Shown: positions 1,325 to 51,019 of the stretch, piece after piece
How the letters are laid out: the number at the start of each line of letters is the position of its first letter
Position numbering within the stretch: position 1 is the stretch's first letter
Source of the DNA: Escherichia phage MLF4
Sequence record: NC_055780.1
Length of the DNA: 64,000 nucleotides
Strand: one strand, 5' to 3'
Translations under genes and position numbers: made by a program
The notes under the pieces: model-generated
Databases searched by the model: none
Told to the model about the DNA's origin: nothing
Seen by the model: the letters and a program-made list of their open reading frames with translations, nothing else

Positions 1325-1583
1325 AGATATTAAAGGTTATAAGCCGCATACTGAAGAGAAAATCGGTAAAGTGAATGCTATCAAAGACGCTGAAGTTCGT
1401 TTAGGACTTATCTTTGATGCTTTATACGATGAATTCTGGGAAGCACTAGATAATTGTGAAGACTGTGAATTCGCGAAGAATTATGCTGAAAGCCTCGATC
1501 AGTTAACTATTGCTAAAACGAAACTCAAAGAAGCCAGTATGTGGGCTTGTCGCGCAGTGTTCCAACCAGAGGAAAAATACTAA
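1317..1583 (+). CDS. hypothetical protein (88 aa)
   Basis: In-frame ATG after GAGGAAG; ORF-track start 1281 lies inside the upstream gene. Confidence 0.45.
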
Positions 1584-1861
1584 TGGCTCAATTAAGTGCA
1601 GGGTTTGGTTATGAGTATTATACTGCACCTCGTCGTGTATCTGTCGCTCCTAAGAAAATTCAAAGTCTTGATGACTTCCAGGAAGTAGTCCGTAAAGCTT
1701 TTCAGGACTATGCACGTTATCTTAAAGAAGATTCACAGGACTGTCTCGAAGAAGATGAAATTGCTTACTATGAGCAGCGTCTTGAACAGCTCAAAAATCT
1801 ACATGAGGTTCGTGCAGAAGTTTCAAAGTCTATGAATAAATTGACTAGATTTAAAGAATAA
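1583..1861 (+). CDS. hypothetical protein (92 aa)
   Basis: TAATG overlap start (MAQLSAGF...); ORF-track start 1541 lies inside upstream gene. Confidence 0.45.
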
Positions 1862-1863
1862 CT

Positions 1864-1893
1864 GTTTACTTTTCCTCTTGACTGTGGTATAAT
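1864..1893 (+). promoter_or_regulatory. T4-type early promoter (GTTTAC, 18 nt, TATAAT)
   Basis: GTTTAC at 1864-1869, TATAAT at 1888-1893, upstream of regB. Confidence 0.6.
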
Positions 1894-1919
1894 TTTCTAT
1901 CAGTTAAGAGGAGAATAAC

Positions 1920-2381
1920 ATGACTATCAACACAGAAGTTTTTATCCGTCGAAATAAGCTTCGTCGTCACTTTGAGTCGGAGTTTCGTCAAATTAACAAT
2001 GAGATTCGTGAGGCATCAAAAGCAGCAGGGGTCTCATCGTTTCATCTAAAATATTCTCAGCATCTTCTTGATCGTGCAATTCAACGGGAGATTGATGAGA
2101 CATATGTTTTTGAATTATTCCACAAAATAAAAGACCATGTTTTAGAAGTTAATGAATTCCTGAGTATGCCTCCGCGTCCTGACATTGACGAGGATTTTAT
2201 TGATGGGGTTGAATACCGTCCTGGACGTTTAGAAATCACAGATGGAAATCTTTGGCTTGGATTTACAGTTTGTAAACCTAATGCGAAGTTCAAAGACCCG
2301 TCACTTCAATGTAGGATGGCAATTATTAACAGTCGTCGTTTACCAGGAAAGGCTTCTAAAGCAGTAATTAAAACTCAATGA
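1920..2381 (+). CDS. regB: RegB sequence-specific endoribonuclease (153 aa)
   Basis: ATG after AGAGGAGAA; size and N-terminus MTINTEVFIRRNK match my recollection of T4 RegB. Confidence 0.85.
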   Translation: MTINTEVFIRRNKLRRHFESEFRQINNEIREASKAAGVSSFHLKYSQHLLDRAIQREIDETYVFELFHKIKDHVLEVNEFLSMPPRPDIDEDFIDGVEYRPGRLEITDGNLWLGFTVCKPNAKFKDPSLQCRMAIINSRRLPGKASKAVIKTQ

Positions 2382-2388
2382 GGTAAGC

Positions 2389-2934
2389 ATGAGAAAAGCA
2401 CTACTCGCTGGTCTATTGGCCATTTCAATGATGGCGCATAGCTCCGAGCATACTTTCAGTAATGTCCAACTCGATAACATGCGTTACGCGTATCAATTCG
2501 GGGAACAATTTTCTAAGGATGGAAAATATAAAACACACAAAAATATCCACAAGAGCGGATTAGGTCATATAATGGCTGCTATTTTATGGCAAGAAAGCTC
2601 TGGCGGAGTTAATTTAAAATCTAAACCAAAGCATCACGCCTACGGAATGTTCCAAAATTATTTGCCTACTATGCGAGCAAGAGTTAAGGAACTTGGTTAT
2701 AATATGACCGATGCTGAAATAAAAAGAATGTTGAATAAACGGTCCAATTCAGCTTCCTGGGCGTACATTGAACTTTCTTATTGGTTAAATATACATAAGG
2801 GCGATATAAGAAAAGCAATATCCTCTTATAATTCGGGATGGAATGTTAAAGCAGGTTCTAAATATGCTTCTGAAGTCCTAGAAAAGGCTAATTACCTTAA
2901 AAATAATAAACTTTTGGAAATAGTAAATGACTAA
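2389..2934 (+). CDS. secreted lytic-transglycosylase-like protein (SLT fold, 181 aa)
   Basis: Signal-peptide-like N-terminus; SLT-type motifs WQESSGG, YGMFQ, SYNSGW. Confidence 0.6.
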   Translation: MRKALLAGLLAISMMAHSSEHTFSNVQLDNMRYAYQFGEQFSKDGKYKTHKNIHKSGLGHIMAAILWQESSGGVNLKSKPKHHAYGMFQNYLPTMRARVKELGYNMTDAEIKRMLNKRSNSASWAYIELSYWLNIHKGDIRKAISSYNSGWNVKAGSKYASEVLEKANYLKNNKLLEIVND

Positions 2935-3268
2935 AATTTTGGTTTTATGTATAGGATTAATTTCATTTTCTGCGTTAGCAGATACATCATATACTGAAAT
3001 TAGAGAGTATGTAAACCGTACTGCAGCGGATTATTGCGGGAAAAATAAAGCATGCCAAGCTGAATTTGCACAGAAATTAATATATGCATATAAAGACGGA
3101 GAAAGAGATAAATCAAGCAGATACAAAAACGATACATTATTAAAACGATATGCTAAAAAGTGGAATACCCTAGAATGTTCAGTTGCGGAGGAAAAAGATA
3201 AAGCCGCTTGTCATTCAATGGTTGACCGTTTAGTAGATTCTTATAATCGAGGATTGAGTACTAGATGA
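2927..3268 (+). CDS. secreted/periplasmic hypothetical protein (113 aa)
   Basis: ATG overlapping upstream 3' end; hydrophobic signal-like N-terminus MTKILVLCIGLISFSALA; 4 Cys. Confidence 0.5.
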   Translation: MTKILVLCIGLISFSALADTSYTEIREYVNRTAADYCGKNKACQAEFAQKLIYAYKDGERDKSSRYKNDTLLKRYAKKWNTLECSVAEEKDKAACHSMVDRLVDSYNRGLSTR

Positions 3269-3744
3269 TTGTAAAATATATCAAGGGCGATATTGTCGCC
3301 CTATTTCTTCAAGGTAATATTATTGCGCACGGGTGCAATTGTTTTCATACTATGGGTTCAGGCGTAGCGGGTCAATTAGCAAGAGCCTATCCCAAAATTT
3401 TAGAAATAGATAAAACCACTACTGAGTACGGTTCTCGTGATAAATTAGGCGATATGTCTATTGTTTTTAAACATAGTCCTACGGGATTTGGTATATGCTA
3501 TAACCTGTATACGCAATACGAACCAGGTCCTAATCTTGATTATGGTGCTTTAGTAAACTGCATGATAGAATTAAATCTACAGGCAGAAACCCTTTTGTTT
3601 AAACCAGTAATTTACATTCCGCGTATAGGTTGTGGTATTGCTGGCGGCGATTGGGATAAGGTTTCTAAATTAATCGACATGTTTACTCCTGATATTGATT
3701 TAATAGTGGTGGATTATGAAAGTACATTACCCGCATCCGTTTGA
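3265..3744 (+). CDS. macro-domain-like protein (putative ADP-ribose binding/processing, 159 aa)
   Basis: ATG after GAGGATTGAG; N-terminal GDIV..AHGCNC..GSGVAGQLA resembles macro-domain glycine-rich core. Confidence 0.5.
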   Translation: MIVKYIKGDIVALFLQGNIIAHGCNCFHTMGSGVAGQLARAYPKILEIDKTTTEYGSRDKLGDMSIVFKHSPTGFGICYNLYTQYEPGPNLDYGALVNCMIELNLQAETLLFKPVIYIPRIGCGIAGGDWDKVSKLIDMFTPDIDLIVVDYESTLPASV

Positions 3745-3928
3745 TCCTAAAAACAAAGCAGAAATTATTCGTCAATGGGAACGCATTTGCCGTACTAAAT
3801 GCCCAATTAATAGTCCACATGATGTAAATAAAGACTACATTGGAACATTCGTTGAATATACCTTTATTGATAAGAAAGGTCGTAAACAACATGTAGAAGA
3901 ATATTGCTTAAAGGTTACATGGTTATGA
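3716..3928 (+). CDS. hypothetical protein (70 aa)
   Basis: ATG after GGTGGTGGA; overlaps upstream gene end by 29 nt. Confidence 0.4.
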   Translation: MKVHYPHPFDPKNKAEIIRQWERICRTKCPINSPHDVNKDYIGTFVEYTFIDKKGRKQHVEEYCLKVTWL

Positions 3929-4131
3929 GCCAAACTAGTATTCTTAAAAATGCCCACTGTGAAAAGTGTAAGTGGCCGGTTGTTTTTGCTTTATGCAACG
4001 ATGAAATGACTTGTGATTTCGATTATTGGTGCTATTGTTCTAATAAAGGATGTATCAATCATAAAGGTGAAGGATTTTATTCGGGATTTTATCCTTATCC
4101 AGATTTCGTTAAAGAAGGTAAACCAAAATGA
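3919..4131 (+). CDS. Cys-rich small protein (about 70 aa, putative Zn-binding)
   Basis: ORF-track start 3904 is TTG; first ATG at 3919 (alt 3925); 9 Cys. Confidence 0.4.
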   Translation: MVMSQTSILKNAHCEKCKWPVVFALCNDEMTCDFDYWCYCSNKGCINHKGEGFYSGFYPYPDFVKEGKPK

Positions 4132-4301
4132 ATAGTTTTGAGTTACAATACGAAGTGTTACGTGAGCTTGATAATTTAATTGAACTCGCTGCTAATAAAG
4201 GTTTTGCCATTGGAATTGGTCAAAAAGATACTGATCATTTAACTATGGAAATATTTAAGCAAAAGCGAATTATTTTAAAACTCCTGGAAATTAATATATG
4301 A
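4128..4301 (+). CDS. hypothetical small protein (57 aa)
   Basis: ATGA overlap with upstream stop; below ORF-track length cutoff. Confidence 0.35.
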   Translation: MNSFELQYEVLRELDNLIELAANKGFAIGIGQKDTDHLTMEIFKQKRIILKLLEINI

Positions 4302-4483
4302 GTCTGAGTAAAGAACAAAAAGATAAATTGTTTGAGCTTATCCATGAACTTCTAGATGAGCATACAGAAGCAAACACCTTTTATGATGAATACGGCCCGC
4401 TATCTCCCGAACAGCAGGAAGAATTTGCTGTTCGGTTTGATAAGAAAGAAAATGAATTAATAGCTTATGTGAATACGCTTTAA
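4298..4483 (+). CDS. hypothetical acidic protein (61 aa)
   Basis: ATGA stop-start overlap. Confidence 0.45.
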   Translation: MSLSKEQKDKLFELIHELLDEHTEANTFYDEYGPLSPEQQEEFAVRFDKKENELIAYVNTL

Positions 4484-4492
4484 GAAGGTGAT

Positions 4493-5074
4493 ATGGCGAG
4501 TTTAATTTTTACTTATGCAGCAATGAATGCTGGAAAATCTGCTTCTCTTTTGACTGCTGCACATAATTATAAAGAACGTGGAATGGGTGTATTAGTTCTT
4601 AAGCCTGCTATTGATACTCGCGATTCTGTCTGTGAAGTTGTTTCTCGCATTGGAATTAAGCAGGAAGCGAATATTATTACAGATGATATGGATATTTTCG
4701 AGTTCTATAAATGGGCTGAAGCACAAAAAGATATTCATTGCGTATTTGTAGATGAAGCTCAGTTTTTAAAAACTGAACAGGTGCACCAATTAAGCCGAAT
4801 TGTTGATACATATAATGTTCCTGTTATGGCTTATGGATTAAGGACTGATTTCGCTGGAAAATTGTTTGAAGGTTCTAAAGAACTTTTGGCGATTGCAGAT
4901 AAACTTATTGAACTAAAGGCAGTTTGTCATTGTGGTAAAAAAGCTATTATGACAGCTCGATTAATGGAAGATGGAACACCAGTTAAAGAAGGTAATCAAA
5001 TCTGTATTGGTGATGAAATTTATGTTTCTTTGTGTAGAAAACATTGGAATGAATTAACTAAAAAGCTCGGTTAG
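4493..5074 (+). CDS. tk: thymidine kinase (193 aa)
   Basis: ATG after AAGAAGGTG; P-loop NAGKS; size and N-terminus match recollection of T4 Tk. Confidence 0.9.
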   Translation: MASLIFTYAAMNAGKSASLLTAAHNYKERGMGVLVLKPAIDTRDSVCEVVSRIGIKQEANIITDDMDIFEFYKWAEAQKDIHCVFVDEAQFLKTEQVHQLSRIVDTYNVPVMAYGLRTDFAGKLFEGSKELLAIADKLIELKAVCHCGKKAIMTARLMEDGTPVKEGNQICIGDEIYVSLCRKHWNELTKKLG

Positions 5075-5083
5075 TGCAAAAGT

Positions 5084-5091
5084 TATAAATA
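5084..5091 (+). promoter_or_regulatory. T4 late-promoter-like TATAAATA box
   Basis: Exact TATAAATA about 27 nt upstream of the ATG at 5118. Confidence 0.4.
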
Positions 5092-5117
5092 GGTTTATCT
5101 AACTAAAGGGGTATATA

Positions 5118-5330
5118 ATGCTACAATTAACTGAAAAGCAACTTCGCAATCTTACTGTTCTTCAATTAGATGAAATTCGTAGGGAAGTTGGAAATATCAT
5201 TTCAGCTTTGCGTCGAGAAGTATCACTCAACCAATCTCCGGCAGACTATACTAGATTGCGAAATTTTGAAAAATACCTTGATAAAGTTAAGGCCGTGCAT
5301 CGGCATAAAGTAAATACAGGACAAAAATGA
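5118..5330 (+). CDS. hypothetical protein (70 aa), rI.1 position
   Basis: ATG after AAAGGGG; position between tk and rI. Confidence 0.5.
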
Positions 5331-5342
5331 TAGGAGGCCTTT

Positions 5343-5636
5343 ATGGCCTTAAAAGCAACGGCACTATTTGCCATGCTAGGATTAGCATTTGCTTTGTCTC
5401 CACCGATTGAAGCAAATGTCGATCCTCATTTTGATAAATTTATGGAATCTGGTATTAGACATGTTTATATGCTTTTTGAAAATAAAAGCGTAGAATCATC
5501 TGAACAGTTCTATAGTTTTATGCGAACGACTTATAAAAATGACCCGTGCTCTTCCGATTTTGAATGTATAGAGCGAGGCGCGGAGATGGCACAATCATAC
5601 GCTAGAATTATGAACATTAAATTGGAGACTGAATGA
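5343..5636 (+). CDS. rI: RI lysis-inhibition regulator (97 aa, signal-anchor)
   Basis: ATG after TAGGAGG; N-terminus MALKATALFAMLGL and size match recollection of T4 RI. Confidence 0.85.
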   Translation: MALKATALFAMLGLAFALSPPIEANVDPHFDKFMESGIRHVYMLFENKSVESSEQFYSFMRTTYKNDPCSSDFECIERGAEMAQSYARIMNIKLETE

Positions 5637-48037: not shown

Positions 48038-48198
48038 CCAAAGATATGACGTTAGAAGAGGCAAAGGCTAAAGCAAATGAAGCAATGGATTTGCTTCTTA
48101 AAATTGGCAGTAAAATGATGGAAGAAAATGAGAAGTATATCCAGGAAAATAAAATTCCTGACGGTCCATTAGTAGGCAAAAGGAAATCACATGATTGA
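48034..48198 (+). CDS. possible small protein (54 aa)
   Basis: ATGA overlap; below ORF-track cutoff. Confidence 0.3.
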
Positions 48199-48661
48199 AG
48201 TAGCAAAATTATATTCAATAGAATTTATGTCTAAAGAAGGTAAATCAGTAAATACACTTGATAAAAAATGCTCATTAATTATTCCTTTAGCAGAAAATCC
48301 GGATTTTTTAATTAAAGATATAAAAGAAAGAAAATATCCAGAAAATGTTATTCTAATTATAAAGCATACTGAAGATATTTTGCAGAATACTGATTCGCCG
48401 TTTTCTTCTTCCGAAGCTTTAACTATTAAAGGCTATAAAAGAGCTCATGAATATGGTCTTTTTGACATGTTTGAAGACGATAAAGTTAAATTAGCGAGTC
48501 AACCTTCTAAAAGTAAAACATTCATTATTGAAGATATTAAAGATATAAATGCATTTGTTAAGATGGTCTGGGCTCATTTTGATGTTGGACTACGCTGGAG
48601 AATGTCCGAAGAAGAAAGAAAGATTATTGAAGCTAATCGTCAATTTGGTTTTTATCGCTAG
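48191..48661 (+). CDS. hypothetical protein (156 aa)
   Basis: ATG after AGGAAATCAC. Confidence 0.45.
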
Positions 48662-48919: not shown

Positions 48920-49543
48920 ATGATTATTAATCCTGCAGATGTTGAACAGTTATCTATAAAAGCTGAAAGCGTTGATTTTCAATATGATATGTATAAAAAA
49001 GTCTGTGAAAAATTTACTGACTTTGAGCAGTCTGTTCTTTGGCAATGTATGGAAGCCAAAAAGAATGAAGCTCTTCATCGGCAGTTGAATAAAATCATTA
49101 AAAAGCATTTAACTAAATCGCCTTATCAGTTATATCGTGGTATATCAAAATCGACAAAAGAAATAATAGAAAATTTACAGGTTGGAGATGTATTTTCAAC
49201 AAATAGGGTAGATTCATTTACTACTAGTTTGCATACAGCGTGTTCTTTTTCTTATGCTGAATATTTCACTGAAACAATACTTCGTTTAAAAACTGATAAA
49301 GCTTTTAATTATTCTGACCATATCAGCGATATTATACTTTCTTCTCCTAACACTGAGTTTAAGTACACGTATGAAGATACTGATGGGTTAGATTCAGAAA
49401 GAACTGATAACTTAATGATGATTGTACATGAACAAGAATGGATGATTCCAATTGGAAAGTATAAAATAACTTCTATTTCAAAAGAAAAATTACACGATTC
49501 ATTTGGAACATTTAAAGTTTATGATATTGAGGTAATTGAATGA
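48920..49543 (+). CDS. modB: ADP-ribosyltransferase ModB candidate (207 aa)
   Basis: ART-type R-S-ExE arrangement (YRGIS, TTSLHT, EQEWMIP); size and position. Confidence 0.6.
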   Translation: MIINPADVEQLSIKAESVDFQYDMYKKVCEKFTDFEQSVLWQCMEAKKNEALHRQLNKIIKKHLTKSPYQLYRGISKSTKEIIENLQVGDVFSTNRVDSFTTSLHTACSFSYAEYFTETILRLKTDKAFNYSDHISDIILSSPNTEFKYTYEDTDGLDSERTDNLMMIVHEQEWMIPIGKYKITSISKEKLHDSFGTFKVYDIEVIE

Positions 49544-50142
49544 AATACTCAGTAATGCAACTAAAAGATTTTAAAATAAAATCAATGGATGCATCGGTGC
49601 GTGCTTCTATTCGTGAAGAATTACTTTCTGAAGGGTTTAATTTATCTGAAATTGAACTTTTAATTCATTGTATTACTAATAAACCAGATGACCATACTTG
49701 GTTAAATGAAATAATCAAATCTCGTTTGGTTCCAAACGATAAACCTCTTTGGAGAGGTGTTCCAGCTGAGACTAAGCAGGTGTTAAATCAAGGAATTGAT
49801 ATTATTACATTTGATAAAGTCGTATCAGCTTCATATGATAAAAATATAGCTCTACATTTTGCTTCCGGTTTAGAGTATAACACACAGGTTATTTTTGAAT
49901 TCAAAGCTCCTATGGTATTCAATTTCCAGGAGTATGCTATAAAAGCTCTACGCTGTAAAGAATACAATCCAAACTTTAAGTTTCCGGATAGCCATCGTTA
50001 TCGTAATATGGAATTAGTTTCAGATGAACAAGAAGTAATGATACCAGCTGGAAGTGTATTTAGAATTGCAGATAGATATGAGTACAAAAAGTATTCAACA
50101 TACACTATCTATACTCTTGATTTTGAAGGATTTAATCTATAA
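49540..50142 (+). CDS. modA: ADP-ribosyltransferase ModA candidate (200 aa)
   Basis: ART-type motifs (WRGVP, VSASYD, EQEVMIP); size and position. Confidence 0.6.
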   Translation: MKYSVMQLKDFKIKSMDASVRASIREELLSEGFNLSEIELLIHCITNKPDDHTWLNEIIKSRLVPNDKPLWRGVPAETKQVLNQGIDIITFDKVVSASYDKNIALHFASGLEYNTQVIFEFKAPMVFNFQEYAIKALRCKEYNPNFKFPDSHRYRNMELVSDEQEVMIPAGSVFRIADRYEYKKYSTYTIYTLDFEGFNL

Positions 50143-50263: not shown

Positions 50264-51019
50264 ATGAAACTGCATAATATGTCTAATAATCAAATTCGTA
50301 AAATTAAACGTCGTTTAGAGCGCACTCAGGCATCTGCTAAAAGACGTTCTAAAGATTTTAACTTAGACTTCAATTACATTAAGAACATTTTAGATCAGAA
50401 AGTTTGCGCTTACTCGGGAGAACCTTTTGATAATCGTATTGAAGGAGAGAAATTATCATTAGAACGTTTTGATAATAACGTTGGATACATTAAAGGGAAT
50501 GTTATTGCAGTAAAGAAAAAGTATAATACATTTCGTTCTGATTATACTTTAGAAGAGTTGATTGAAAAGCGTGATTTATTTGCTTTGCGAATTGGTCGTT
50601 CATCTGCGAAAAAAGTTCATAAACTAAATTTAGATGAAAAGAAATGGGCTAAAATCAAAAAGACTTATAATCAAATTAAAGCTATACAGAAAAAACGTGA
50701 AAACCGAATTGAACACATTTCTCAGCTTTCTAAATCAAAACAGACCTCTGACATTAAGCTAAGAATTATATCACTTAAAGCTCGTATTGATGGTTCTCGC
50801 ATAGCAGAAGGCGCTGAAGTTGTTAAACTTAACGTTCTTCTTAAAGGTTCGGATTGGAAAATTGTGAAAAAGCTGTCAGAAGCAGAAATGCAATATGATA
50901 TGTGTGATAAAATTATTCAAGGTGTAGAGCGGTATCAAAACTTGTCTTTTATTGATAAACTTAAACTGAAAAGAGGATACCCGCTAAATTGTTCAATTTT
51001 TAAACTTATCCGAGGATAA
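50264..51019 (+). CDS. basic hypothetical protein (251 aa) at the srd position
   Basis: ATG after GTGAGAAA; Lys/Arg-rich; assignment by position and size only. Confidence 0.45.
   Translation: MKLHNMSNNQIRKIKRRLERTQASAKRRSKDFNLDFNYIKNILDQKVCAYSGEPFDNRIEGEKLSLERFDNNVGYIKGNVIAVKKKYNTFRSDYTLEELIEKRDLFALRIGRSSAKKVHKLNLDEKKWAKIKKTYNQIKAIQKKRENRIEHISQLSKSKQTSDIKLRIISLKARIDGSRIAEGAEVVKLNVLLKGSDWKIVKKLSEAEMQYDMCDKIIQGVERYQNLSFIDKLKLKRGYPLNCSIFKLIRG

Follow-up and report, generated by a model that had tools for sequence, protein, structure and literature searches.

A divergent allele of the T4 macrodomain gene tk.4 (adfM) in Escherichia phage MLF4 and its probable role against DarTG2

The DNA analyzed in this study is a window of 64,000 nucleotides from Escherichia phage MLF4 (NC_055780.1), which is a Tequatrovirus. 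The 2.8 kb surrounding the gene described here matched 747 phage records, nearly all of them from T4-like enterobacterial phages, with up to 99% identity. Since the gene order is identical to that of T4 (vs.6, vs.5, vs.4, vs.3, regB, vs.1, vs, tk.4, tk.3 ... tk, rI.1, rI, rI.-1), the open reading frame at positions 3265–3744 on the plus strand is the counterpart of T4 tk.4. It occupies the slot between vs (99% identical to T4) and tk.3 (93%), and the identity to the T4 counterparts across vs.1, vs, tk.3, and tk ranges from 93 to 100%. The frame runs from ATG to TGA and encodes a single-domain macrodomain protein of 159 amino acids (17.5 kDa, pI 5.0), a homologue of the T4 protein that was recently renamed AdfM.

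The start codon of tk.4 is secure because three features agree. A GAGGA motif resembling a Shine-Dalgarno sequence, read from the sequence at 3249–3253 (plus strand) and identical in T4, lies 11 nt 5' of the ATG and is the putative ribosome-binding site; the ATG overlaps the TGA stop codon of the upstream gene vs in the tetranucleotide ATGA (3265–3268); and the same Met-Ile opens the tk.4 homologues in our alignment. The ATGA overlap also suggests that the translation of vs and tk.4 is coupled. The best sigma-70-like promoter match in a consensus scan (TTTACT-17-TATAAT with TG, 1865–1893, plus strand) lies 5' of regB and is possibly the start of the co-directional regB-vs.1-vs-tk.4-...-tk string. 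However, the evidence for this promoter is weak, because the 13 promoter-like sites found in the region are not in excess of the 15.4 expected in shuffled sequence. The timing of tk.4 expression thus rests on knowledge from T4 only. The same region also contains a perfect 7-bp inverted repeat (GGGCGAT-ATT-GTCGCCC, 3284–3302) with a T-rich tail, which is located 20 nt into the tk.4 coding region, was flagged as terminator-like by the scan, and has an identical sequence in T4. Within positions 1500–5400, seven terminator-like sites were counted versus 2.1 expected from shuffles.

A preliminary description of this DNA had placed the tk.4 product next to a secreted SLT-like protein and a signal-peptide protein at 2389–3268. 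Two genes are indeed present there, namely vs.1 (2389–2934), whose product matches the Pfam SLT family and shows 100% identity to the T4 protein, and vs (2927–3268), annotated as ‘valyl-tRNA synthetase modifier’. Their adjacency to tk.4 is the conserved gene order of T4, and a functional module is not supported. The N-termini of Vs and Vs.1 are hydrophobic and signal-peptide-like (MTKILVLCIGLISFSALA and MRKALLAGLLAISMMAHS), which is surprising in the case of Vs, since a protein that modifies a cytoplasmic synthetase would not be expected to be exported. In the HIDEN-SEQ preprint, vs was the most depleted gene in minimal medium (10.1101/2025.11.20.689424). Farther upstream, the vs.4 counterpart (1317–1583) encodes a protein that is 100% identical to T4 Vs.4. 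We take Vs.4 to be Acb2, the anti-CBASS cyclic-nucleotide sponge; if so, two counter-defence genes lie less than 2 kb apart in this part of the genome.

Within this highly conserved neighborhood, tk.4 itself is strikingly different from its T4 counterpart. Sliding identity values, calculated after aligning the window and T4 with MAFFT, delimited a divergent allele cassette at 3295–3756 (plus strand) with 42–82% nucleotide identity to T4, whereas its flanks are 97–100% identical. At the protein level, MLF4 Tk.4 and T4 Tk.4 share 58% identity (E = 7e-70), compared to 93–100% for the products of the flanking genes, and this identity drops from 84% in the first third of the protein to 50% and 42% in the second and last third. 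Neither allele is rare. Proteins at least 90% identical to MLF4 Tk.4 were found in 311 phage records; for T4 Tk.4 the corresponding number was 224, with 159 additional records at 80–90% identity. In total, approximately 2,790 of 50,697 phage records, from phages of many host genera, contained homologues. The MLF4-type and the T4-type alleles are therefore both common, and what is modestly new here is the presence of a sharply bounded tk.4 allele with 58% identity to T4 in otherwise near-T4 DNA.

Other parts of the region are mosaic as well. Just 3' of tk.4 and tk.3, the identity to T4 DNA collapses at 3937–4520 and recovers inside tk. This second block contains a Phage_zn_bind ORF (PF23895, starting at 3904 or 3925 and ending at 4131), a 57-aa ORF at 4128–4301 that has no T4 counterpart, and a tk.2-like ORF at 4298–4483 whose product is 54% identical to T4 Tk.2, while tk.1 is absent. 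On the other side of the locus, the vs.5 counterpart (1103–1324) encodes 73 amino acids versus 58 in T4, with 35% identity beyond the shared N-terminus, and is another small replaced cassette; vs.6, vs.4, and vs.3 are 97–100% identical to T4. A stretch of 29 nt (3716–3744) is shared by the 3' end of tk.4 and the start of tk.3, compared to an overlap of 4 nt in T4. The MLF4 protein has five extra C-terminal residues, which were modeled with pLDDT values below 50.

The product of MLF4 tk.4 is a genuine macrodomain, and the resemblance is far beyond chance. It matched the Pfam Macro family (PF01661) with an E-value of 1.3e-7 and 32 bits (cut-off 22) over model positions 2–117 of 118. A profile built from 55 homologues and compared to solved structures matched BT1257 (E = 9e-19), TARG1 (6e-17), SCO6735 (6e-16), Poa1p (5e-14), and DarG (1e-11 for the M. 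tuberculosis protein and 1e-9), whereas coronavirus macrodomains scored far lower (1.6e-3). An AlphaFold2 model of MLF4 Tk.4 based on the alignment of the same 55 homologues reached a pLDDT of 93.7 and a pTM of 0.89, and the predicted structure displays the three-layer alpha/beta/alpha macro fold. A Foldseek search with this model retrieved TARG1 as the top match (E = 1.4e-9), followed by Poa1p, BT1257, DarG, and SCO6735. Hence, the macro-domain-like protein proposed for 3265–3744 in the preliminary description was confirmed, both by profile comparison with macrodomain families and by fold prediction. MLF4 Tk.4 belongs to the ALC1-like (TARG1/DarG/SCO6735) class and is clearly set apart from the MacroD, viral, and PARG types.

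Two more specific identities were considered and rejected. Tk.4 is not a DarG antitoxin: the DarG equivalog model (NF048014) scored 27.7 bits against a cut-off of 250, the match was confined to positions 2–142 of 338 and thus to the macro half, the protein has merely 159 amino acids, and no darT gene was found beside tk.4, whose neighbors are vs and tk.3 of the T4-type early gene string. The assignment as a MacroD/YmdB deacetylase, a name given to some homologues by JGI, was dismissed because the respective model (NF001661) scored 15.7 bits against a cut-off of 291; YmdB ranked only 29th among the Foldseek matches.

We determined residue conservation across 118 homologues, which included T4 Tk.4. 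In the H22-G-C-N25-C26 motif (3328–3342, plus strand), H22, G23, N25, and C26 are invariant. Asn25 is the conserved macrodomain asparagine, which corresponds to N27 of SCO6735 and N23 of PhiKZ AdfM and aligns with the respective Asn of DarG. The glycine-rich loop 1, M30-G-S-G-V-A-G36 (3352–3372, plus strand), contains the invariant residues G33 and A35 and the nearly invariant residues M30 and G31, and its counterparts in the alignment are MGAGIA in TARG1 and MGKGIA in DarG. At the end of a strand, N80, Y82, and Q84 of N80-L-Y-T-Q84 (3502–3516, plus strand) are invariant. The glycine-rich phosphate-binding loop 2, P119-R-I-G-C-G-I-A-G-G-D-W130 (3619–3654, plus strand), has an invariant P119 and W130, and G122 and G124 are present in 117 of the 118 sequences, with the one remaining sequence having a gap. 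Loop 2 of MLF4 Tk.4 (PRIGCGIAGGDW) differs little from that of SCO6735 (PRIGCGLAGGTW) or BT1257 (PRIGCGLAGGKW). The ADP-ribose-binding core, consisting of both loops and Asn25, is thus predicted to be intact. The preliminary description had derived its macrodomain assignment from the motifs G8-D-I-V11, A21-H-G-C-N-C26, and G31-S-G-V-A-G-Q-L-A39. All three exist, although the gap between the first and the second motif is nine residues and not ten, and the glycine-rich phosphate-binding loop is found on alignment.

The catalytic lysine of the TARG1/DarG type is absent from the phage family. In an alignment with T4 Tk.4, TARG1, PhiKZ gp104, and two DarG macrodomains, the latter obtained from the PDB with PhiKZ gp104 as the query, its position (K84 in TARG1, K80 in DarG, and the lysine of the ‘PTK’ motif in PhiKZ) is taken by Gln84, which is found in all 118 family members. 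Gln84 aligns with the Gln of BT1257 (NMIGQ, against NlYtq) in the profile alignment, which we used for this placement because the MAFFT alignment misplaced BT1257 near this residue. Proteins of the Gln-type subclass have a Gln at the lysine position and a locking Asn, and in MLF4 Tk.4 these are Q84 and N25. One example is SCO6735, whose Gln85 is equivalent to TARG1 K84 and DarG K80. The mutation Q85A abolishes SCO6735 activity, and mutation of Asn27, which is thought to lock Gln85, lowers or abolishes it (PMC9411070). Mutation of the equivalent Asn also lowers the activity of DarG. SCO6735 cleaves the thymidine-ADP-ribose made by DarT, does so faster than DarG, and rescues cells from DarT (PMC9411070).

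The resemblance of the phage protein to SCO6735 and BT1257 thus comprises the Gln at the catalytic Lys position, the conserved Asn, and the near-identical loop 2. In contrast, the sequence identity is just 26–29%, the context of tk.4 is that of a phage rather than a chromosome, and the mobile loop of the phage protein is short. This loop reads YEPGPNLD in MLF4 Tk.4 and contains no Lys, and the SCO6735-type mobile loop, which exceeds that of TARG1 and DarG by five residues and carries Lys89 and Lys93, is absent, as is Lys34 of loop 1, for which MLF4 Tk.4 has Ser32 and most homologues have Ala. Lys34 and Lys89 help SCO6735 bind DNA. Compared with the profile of the phage family, BT1257 has six additional residues inserted after the Gln. 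Because a Gln84 center is combined with a short mobile loop and no equivalents of Lys34 and Lys89, the Tk.4 family is a hybrid of a Gln-type center and the loop architecture of TARG1 and DarG. TARG1 (OARD1) is a member of the same class and also removes thymine- and uracil-linked ADP-ribose, but MLF4 Tk.4 has Q84 and A126 in place of the TARG1 catalytic dyad K84/D125. The DarG macrodomains of M. tuberculosis (5m3i) and T. aquaticus (5m31) share 18–23% identity with Tk.4, which differs from DarG by having Gln84 instead of Lys and by lacking a DarT-binding C-terminal domain and an adjacent darT.

The function of the T4 orthologue has already been published, and the gene is annotated, so that the feature as such is known. 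In GenBank, T4 Tk.4 is labeled ‘phosphatase; contains A1pp phosphatase motif’, and some relatives are labeled ‘macro domain protein’. In an earlier study, T4 withstood DarTG2 even without adfA and adfN, and the existence of another factor was predicted. When a T4 transposon library was grown on DarTG2-expressing cells, tk.4 was the single significant hit, and a clean tk.4 deletion rendered T4 sensitive to DarTG2; the gene was renamed adfM for anti-DarT factor macrodomain and scored as conditionally essential only when DarTG2 was present (10.1101/2025.11.20.689424). To the authors of that preprint, it ‘seems likely’ that ADP-ribose is removed from DNA enzymatically (10.1101/2025.11.20.689424), and our literature searches yielded no biochemical assay of T4 Tk.4. 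The T4 and MLF4 proteins have in common the locus between vs and tk.3, a similar length, N25, Q84, and both loops, and they differ in loop 2 (GAGIGKGNW in T4 versus GCGIAGGDW in MLF4), in the five extra C-terminal residues of the MLF4 protein, and in the pI (5.0 versus 5.9 in T4). As all family-invariant residues are shared with T4 Tk.4, the MLF4 allele is expected to have the same activity.

Based on these data, we consider it likely, with a probability of roughly 70%, that MLF4 tk.4 is the adfM of a T4-like phage and encodes a counter-defence enzyme that erases DarT2-made ADP-ribose from phage DNA. We infer both that T4 Tk.4 acts enzymatically and that the 58%-identical MLF4 allele does the same job. 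In the proposed mechanism, DarT2 of the host DarTG2 system would block replication by ADP-ribosylating thymidines in the single-stranded DNA of the phage. Tk.4 would then hold the ADP-ribose between its two glycine-rich loops and hydrolyze the thymine-ribose bond, yielding clean DNA and free ADP-ribose. Because Gln84, Asn25, and loop 2 resemble their counterparts in SCO6735, we propose a lysine-independent, water-mediated hydrolysis, in which Gln84, held by Asn25, would probably position the distal ribose and a water molecule as in the SCO6735-like route. Of the DarG antitoxin, Tk.4 would mimic the enzymatic part alone, since it has no DarT-binding C-terminal domain. A role as a de-ADP-ribosylase is supported by the conservation of Gln84, Asn25, and both loops, which are invariant or nearly so among the 118 homologues. 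Against it stand the identity of only 42–50% to the T4 protein in the C-terminal two thirds, so that the specificity could differ, the absence of both the DarG catalytic Lys and the SCO6735 DNA-activity features (the longer loop, Lys34, and Lys89), and the acidic nature of the MLF4 protein, which is unexpected for a DNA-binding surface. Among the roles suggested in the preliminary description, reversal of ADP-ribosylation is thus the most likely one, whereas we found no evidence for the degradation of a nucleotide-derived signal.

A second phage-encoded orphan macrodomain is known to act against DarTG2. PhiKZ gp104 (AdfM) strips DarT2-made ADP-ribose from DNA in vitro, and the substitution N23A of the conserved Asn, which is needed in this protein, reduces the activity (PMC13309987). 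A comparison of PhiKZ gp104 with Tk.4 by hhalign gave a probability of 96.5% at 23% identity, so that the similarity exists at the profile level only, and BLASTP of MLF4 Tk.4 against PhiKZ AdfM yielded only two short and weak segments. Moreover, PhiKZ gp104 differs by keeping the DarG-type ‘PTK’ lysine, by having DarG as its nearest solved relative (E = 9e-25), and by being imported into the phage nucleus. The AdfM proteins of T-even phages and PhiKZ are accordingly separate recruitments from different macrodomain lineages.

The sharp bounds of the tk.4 cassette, its 58% protein identity within near-T4 DNA, and the frequency of both alleles among sequenced phages could also indicate that the MLF4 allele is tuned to another base-linked mark, for instance to uracil-ADP-ribose on RNA or to a modification made by another DarT-like toxin, instead of that made by the E. 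coli DarT2 used in the T4 experiments. Uracil-ADP-ribose on RNA is also a substrate of TARG1, DarG, and SCO6735 (PMC13036486). We regard such a shift as unlikely. Every family-invariant residue is common to both alleles, no change in specificity is needed because enzymatic reversal is independent of the toxin that made the mark, and neutral mosaicism, as in the neighboring tk.2/tk.1 block, could account for the divergence. A broader form of this idea would see the tk.4 locus as a hot spot of an arms race with exchangeable macrodomain cassettes of different specificities, which is similarly doubtful. In that case, the alleles might inhibit different DarT2 variants by direct binding or remove different base-linked ADP-ribose marks (from thymine in DNA or from uracil in RNA), and the Tk.4 type, with its Gln-type site, short loop, and lack of DNA-clamping lysines, would be a third flavor of DNA de-ADP-ribosylases.

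The legacy annotation implies that Tk.4 works on free ADP-ribose metabolites, either as a Poa1p-like ADP-ribose-1''-phosphate phosphatase or as an O-acetyl-ADP-ribose deacetylase. In the alignment with Poa1p, H22 and T29 of MLF4 Tk.4 are opposite to H23 and S30, which are Poa1p active-site residues probed by mutation. We consider the legacy function very unlikely. To our knowledge, T4 infection offers no source of ADP-ribose-1''-phosphate, and phosphatase activity on this compound is a common side reaction of macrodomains. The deacetylase option conflicts with the low score of the YmdB/MacroD-type NCBIfam model mentioned above, and the legacy reading as a whole leaves the DarTG2 phenotype of the T4 tk.4 deletion unexplained.

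The preliminary description had connected the macrodomain with ADP-ribosyltransferases of the phage itself, and the two transferase genes were correctly recognized at 48920–50142. They occur in the order modB (48920–49543, plus strand; 207 aa, 95% identical to T4 ModB) and modA (49540–50142, plus strand; 200 aa, 99% identical to T4 ModA). No Pfam model detects ModA or ModB, and the assignment was decided by PHROGs, where the region matched phrog_832 (‘RNA polymerase ADP-ribosylase’), and by direct comparison with T4. As in T4, the pair is flanked by genes for an Mrh-like transcription modulator (PF24070) and the Srd anti-sigma factor (phrog_1400), located at 48191–48661 and 50264–51019. With both transferases encoded in the same 64,000-nt window, and with SCO6735 and TARG1 also acting on protein substrates, Tk.4 could in principle erase or read the marks placed by Alt, ModA, and ModB on host proteins and, for example, reset the RNA polymerase alpha subunit or S1/EF-Tu. 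Arg-linked ADP-ribose is removed by enzymes of the ARH/DraG fold. Where target sites of the T4 transferases Alt and ModA have been documented, they are arginines (R265 of RNA polymerase alpha and R84 of MazF), and ModB belongs to the same transferase family (PMC8120803). In contrast, the known substrates of the TARG1/DarG/SCO6735 class are Glu/Asp-linked ADP-ribose esters on proteins and, in the case of nucleic acids, ADP-ribose linked to thymine or uracil (PMC9411070, PMC13036486). Furthermore, tk.4 and modB/modA are unlinked and approximately 45 kb apart, and in the T4 screen the requirement for tk.4 was confined to DarTG2-expressing hosts. The proposed link to the phage's own ModA and ModB is thus unsupported and extremely improbable. 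Since the T4 tk.4 knockout is sensitive to DarTG2, the erased mark was most likely made by the host on phage DNA and not by the phage on host proteins. Tk.4 is not a general eraser either. According to the CmdTAC paper, in which we found no role for the T4 macrodomain, wild-type T4 is strongly restricted by CmdTAC despite the presence of tk.4, and as CmdT is an mRNA ADP-ribosyltransferase, Tk.4 does not neutralize CmdT.

Finally, there is hardly any probability that Tk.4 acts without hydrolysis, by binding and inhibiting DarT2 or by sequestering an ADP-ribose-derived molecule: DarT is inhibited in vitro even by the inactive SCO6735 variant Q85A (PMC9411070) and the classical catalytic Lys is missing from Tk.4, but the protein lacks the DarT-binding C-terminal domain of DarG, as noted above for the partial match, and the strict invariance of Gln84 and Asn25 in 118 sequences points to a conserved active site.

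While nothing in these results will surprise specialists, they assign a probable function to a gene that is labeled ‘phosphatase’ or ‘hypothetical protein’ in databases. They also indicate that the relevant ADP-ribosylation conflict is the one between host DarT2 and phage DNA and does not involve the phage enzymes ModA and ModB. For annotation purposes, AdfM of the T-even phages belongs to the Gln-type and not the Lys-type branch of the TARG1/DarG class. At least two adfM alleles, deeply divergent from each other, occur among the T4-like phages, and the DarTG2 phenotype is known for the T4 allele.
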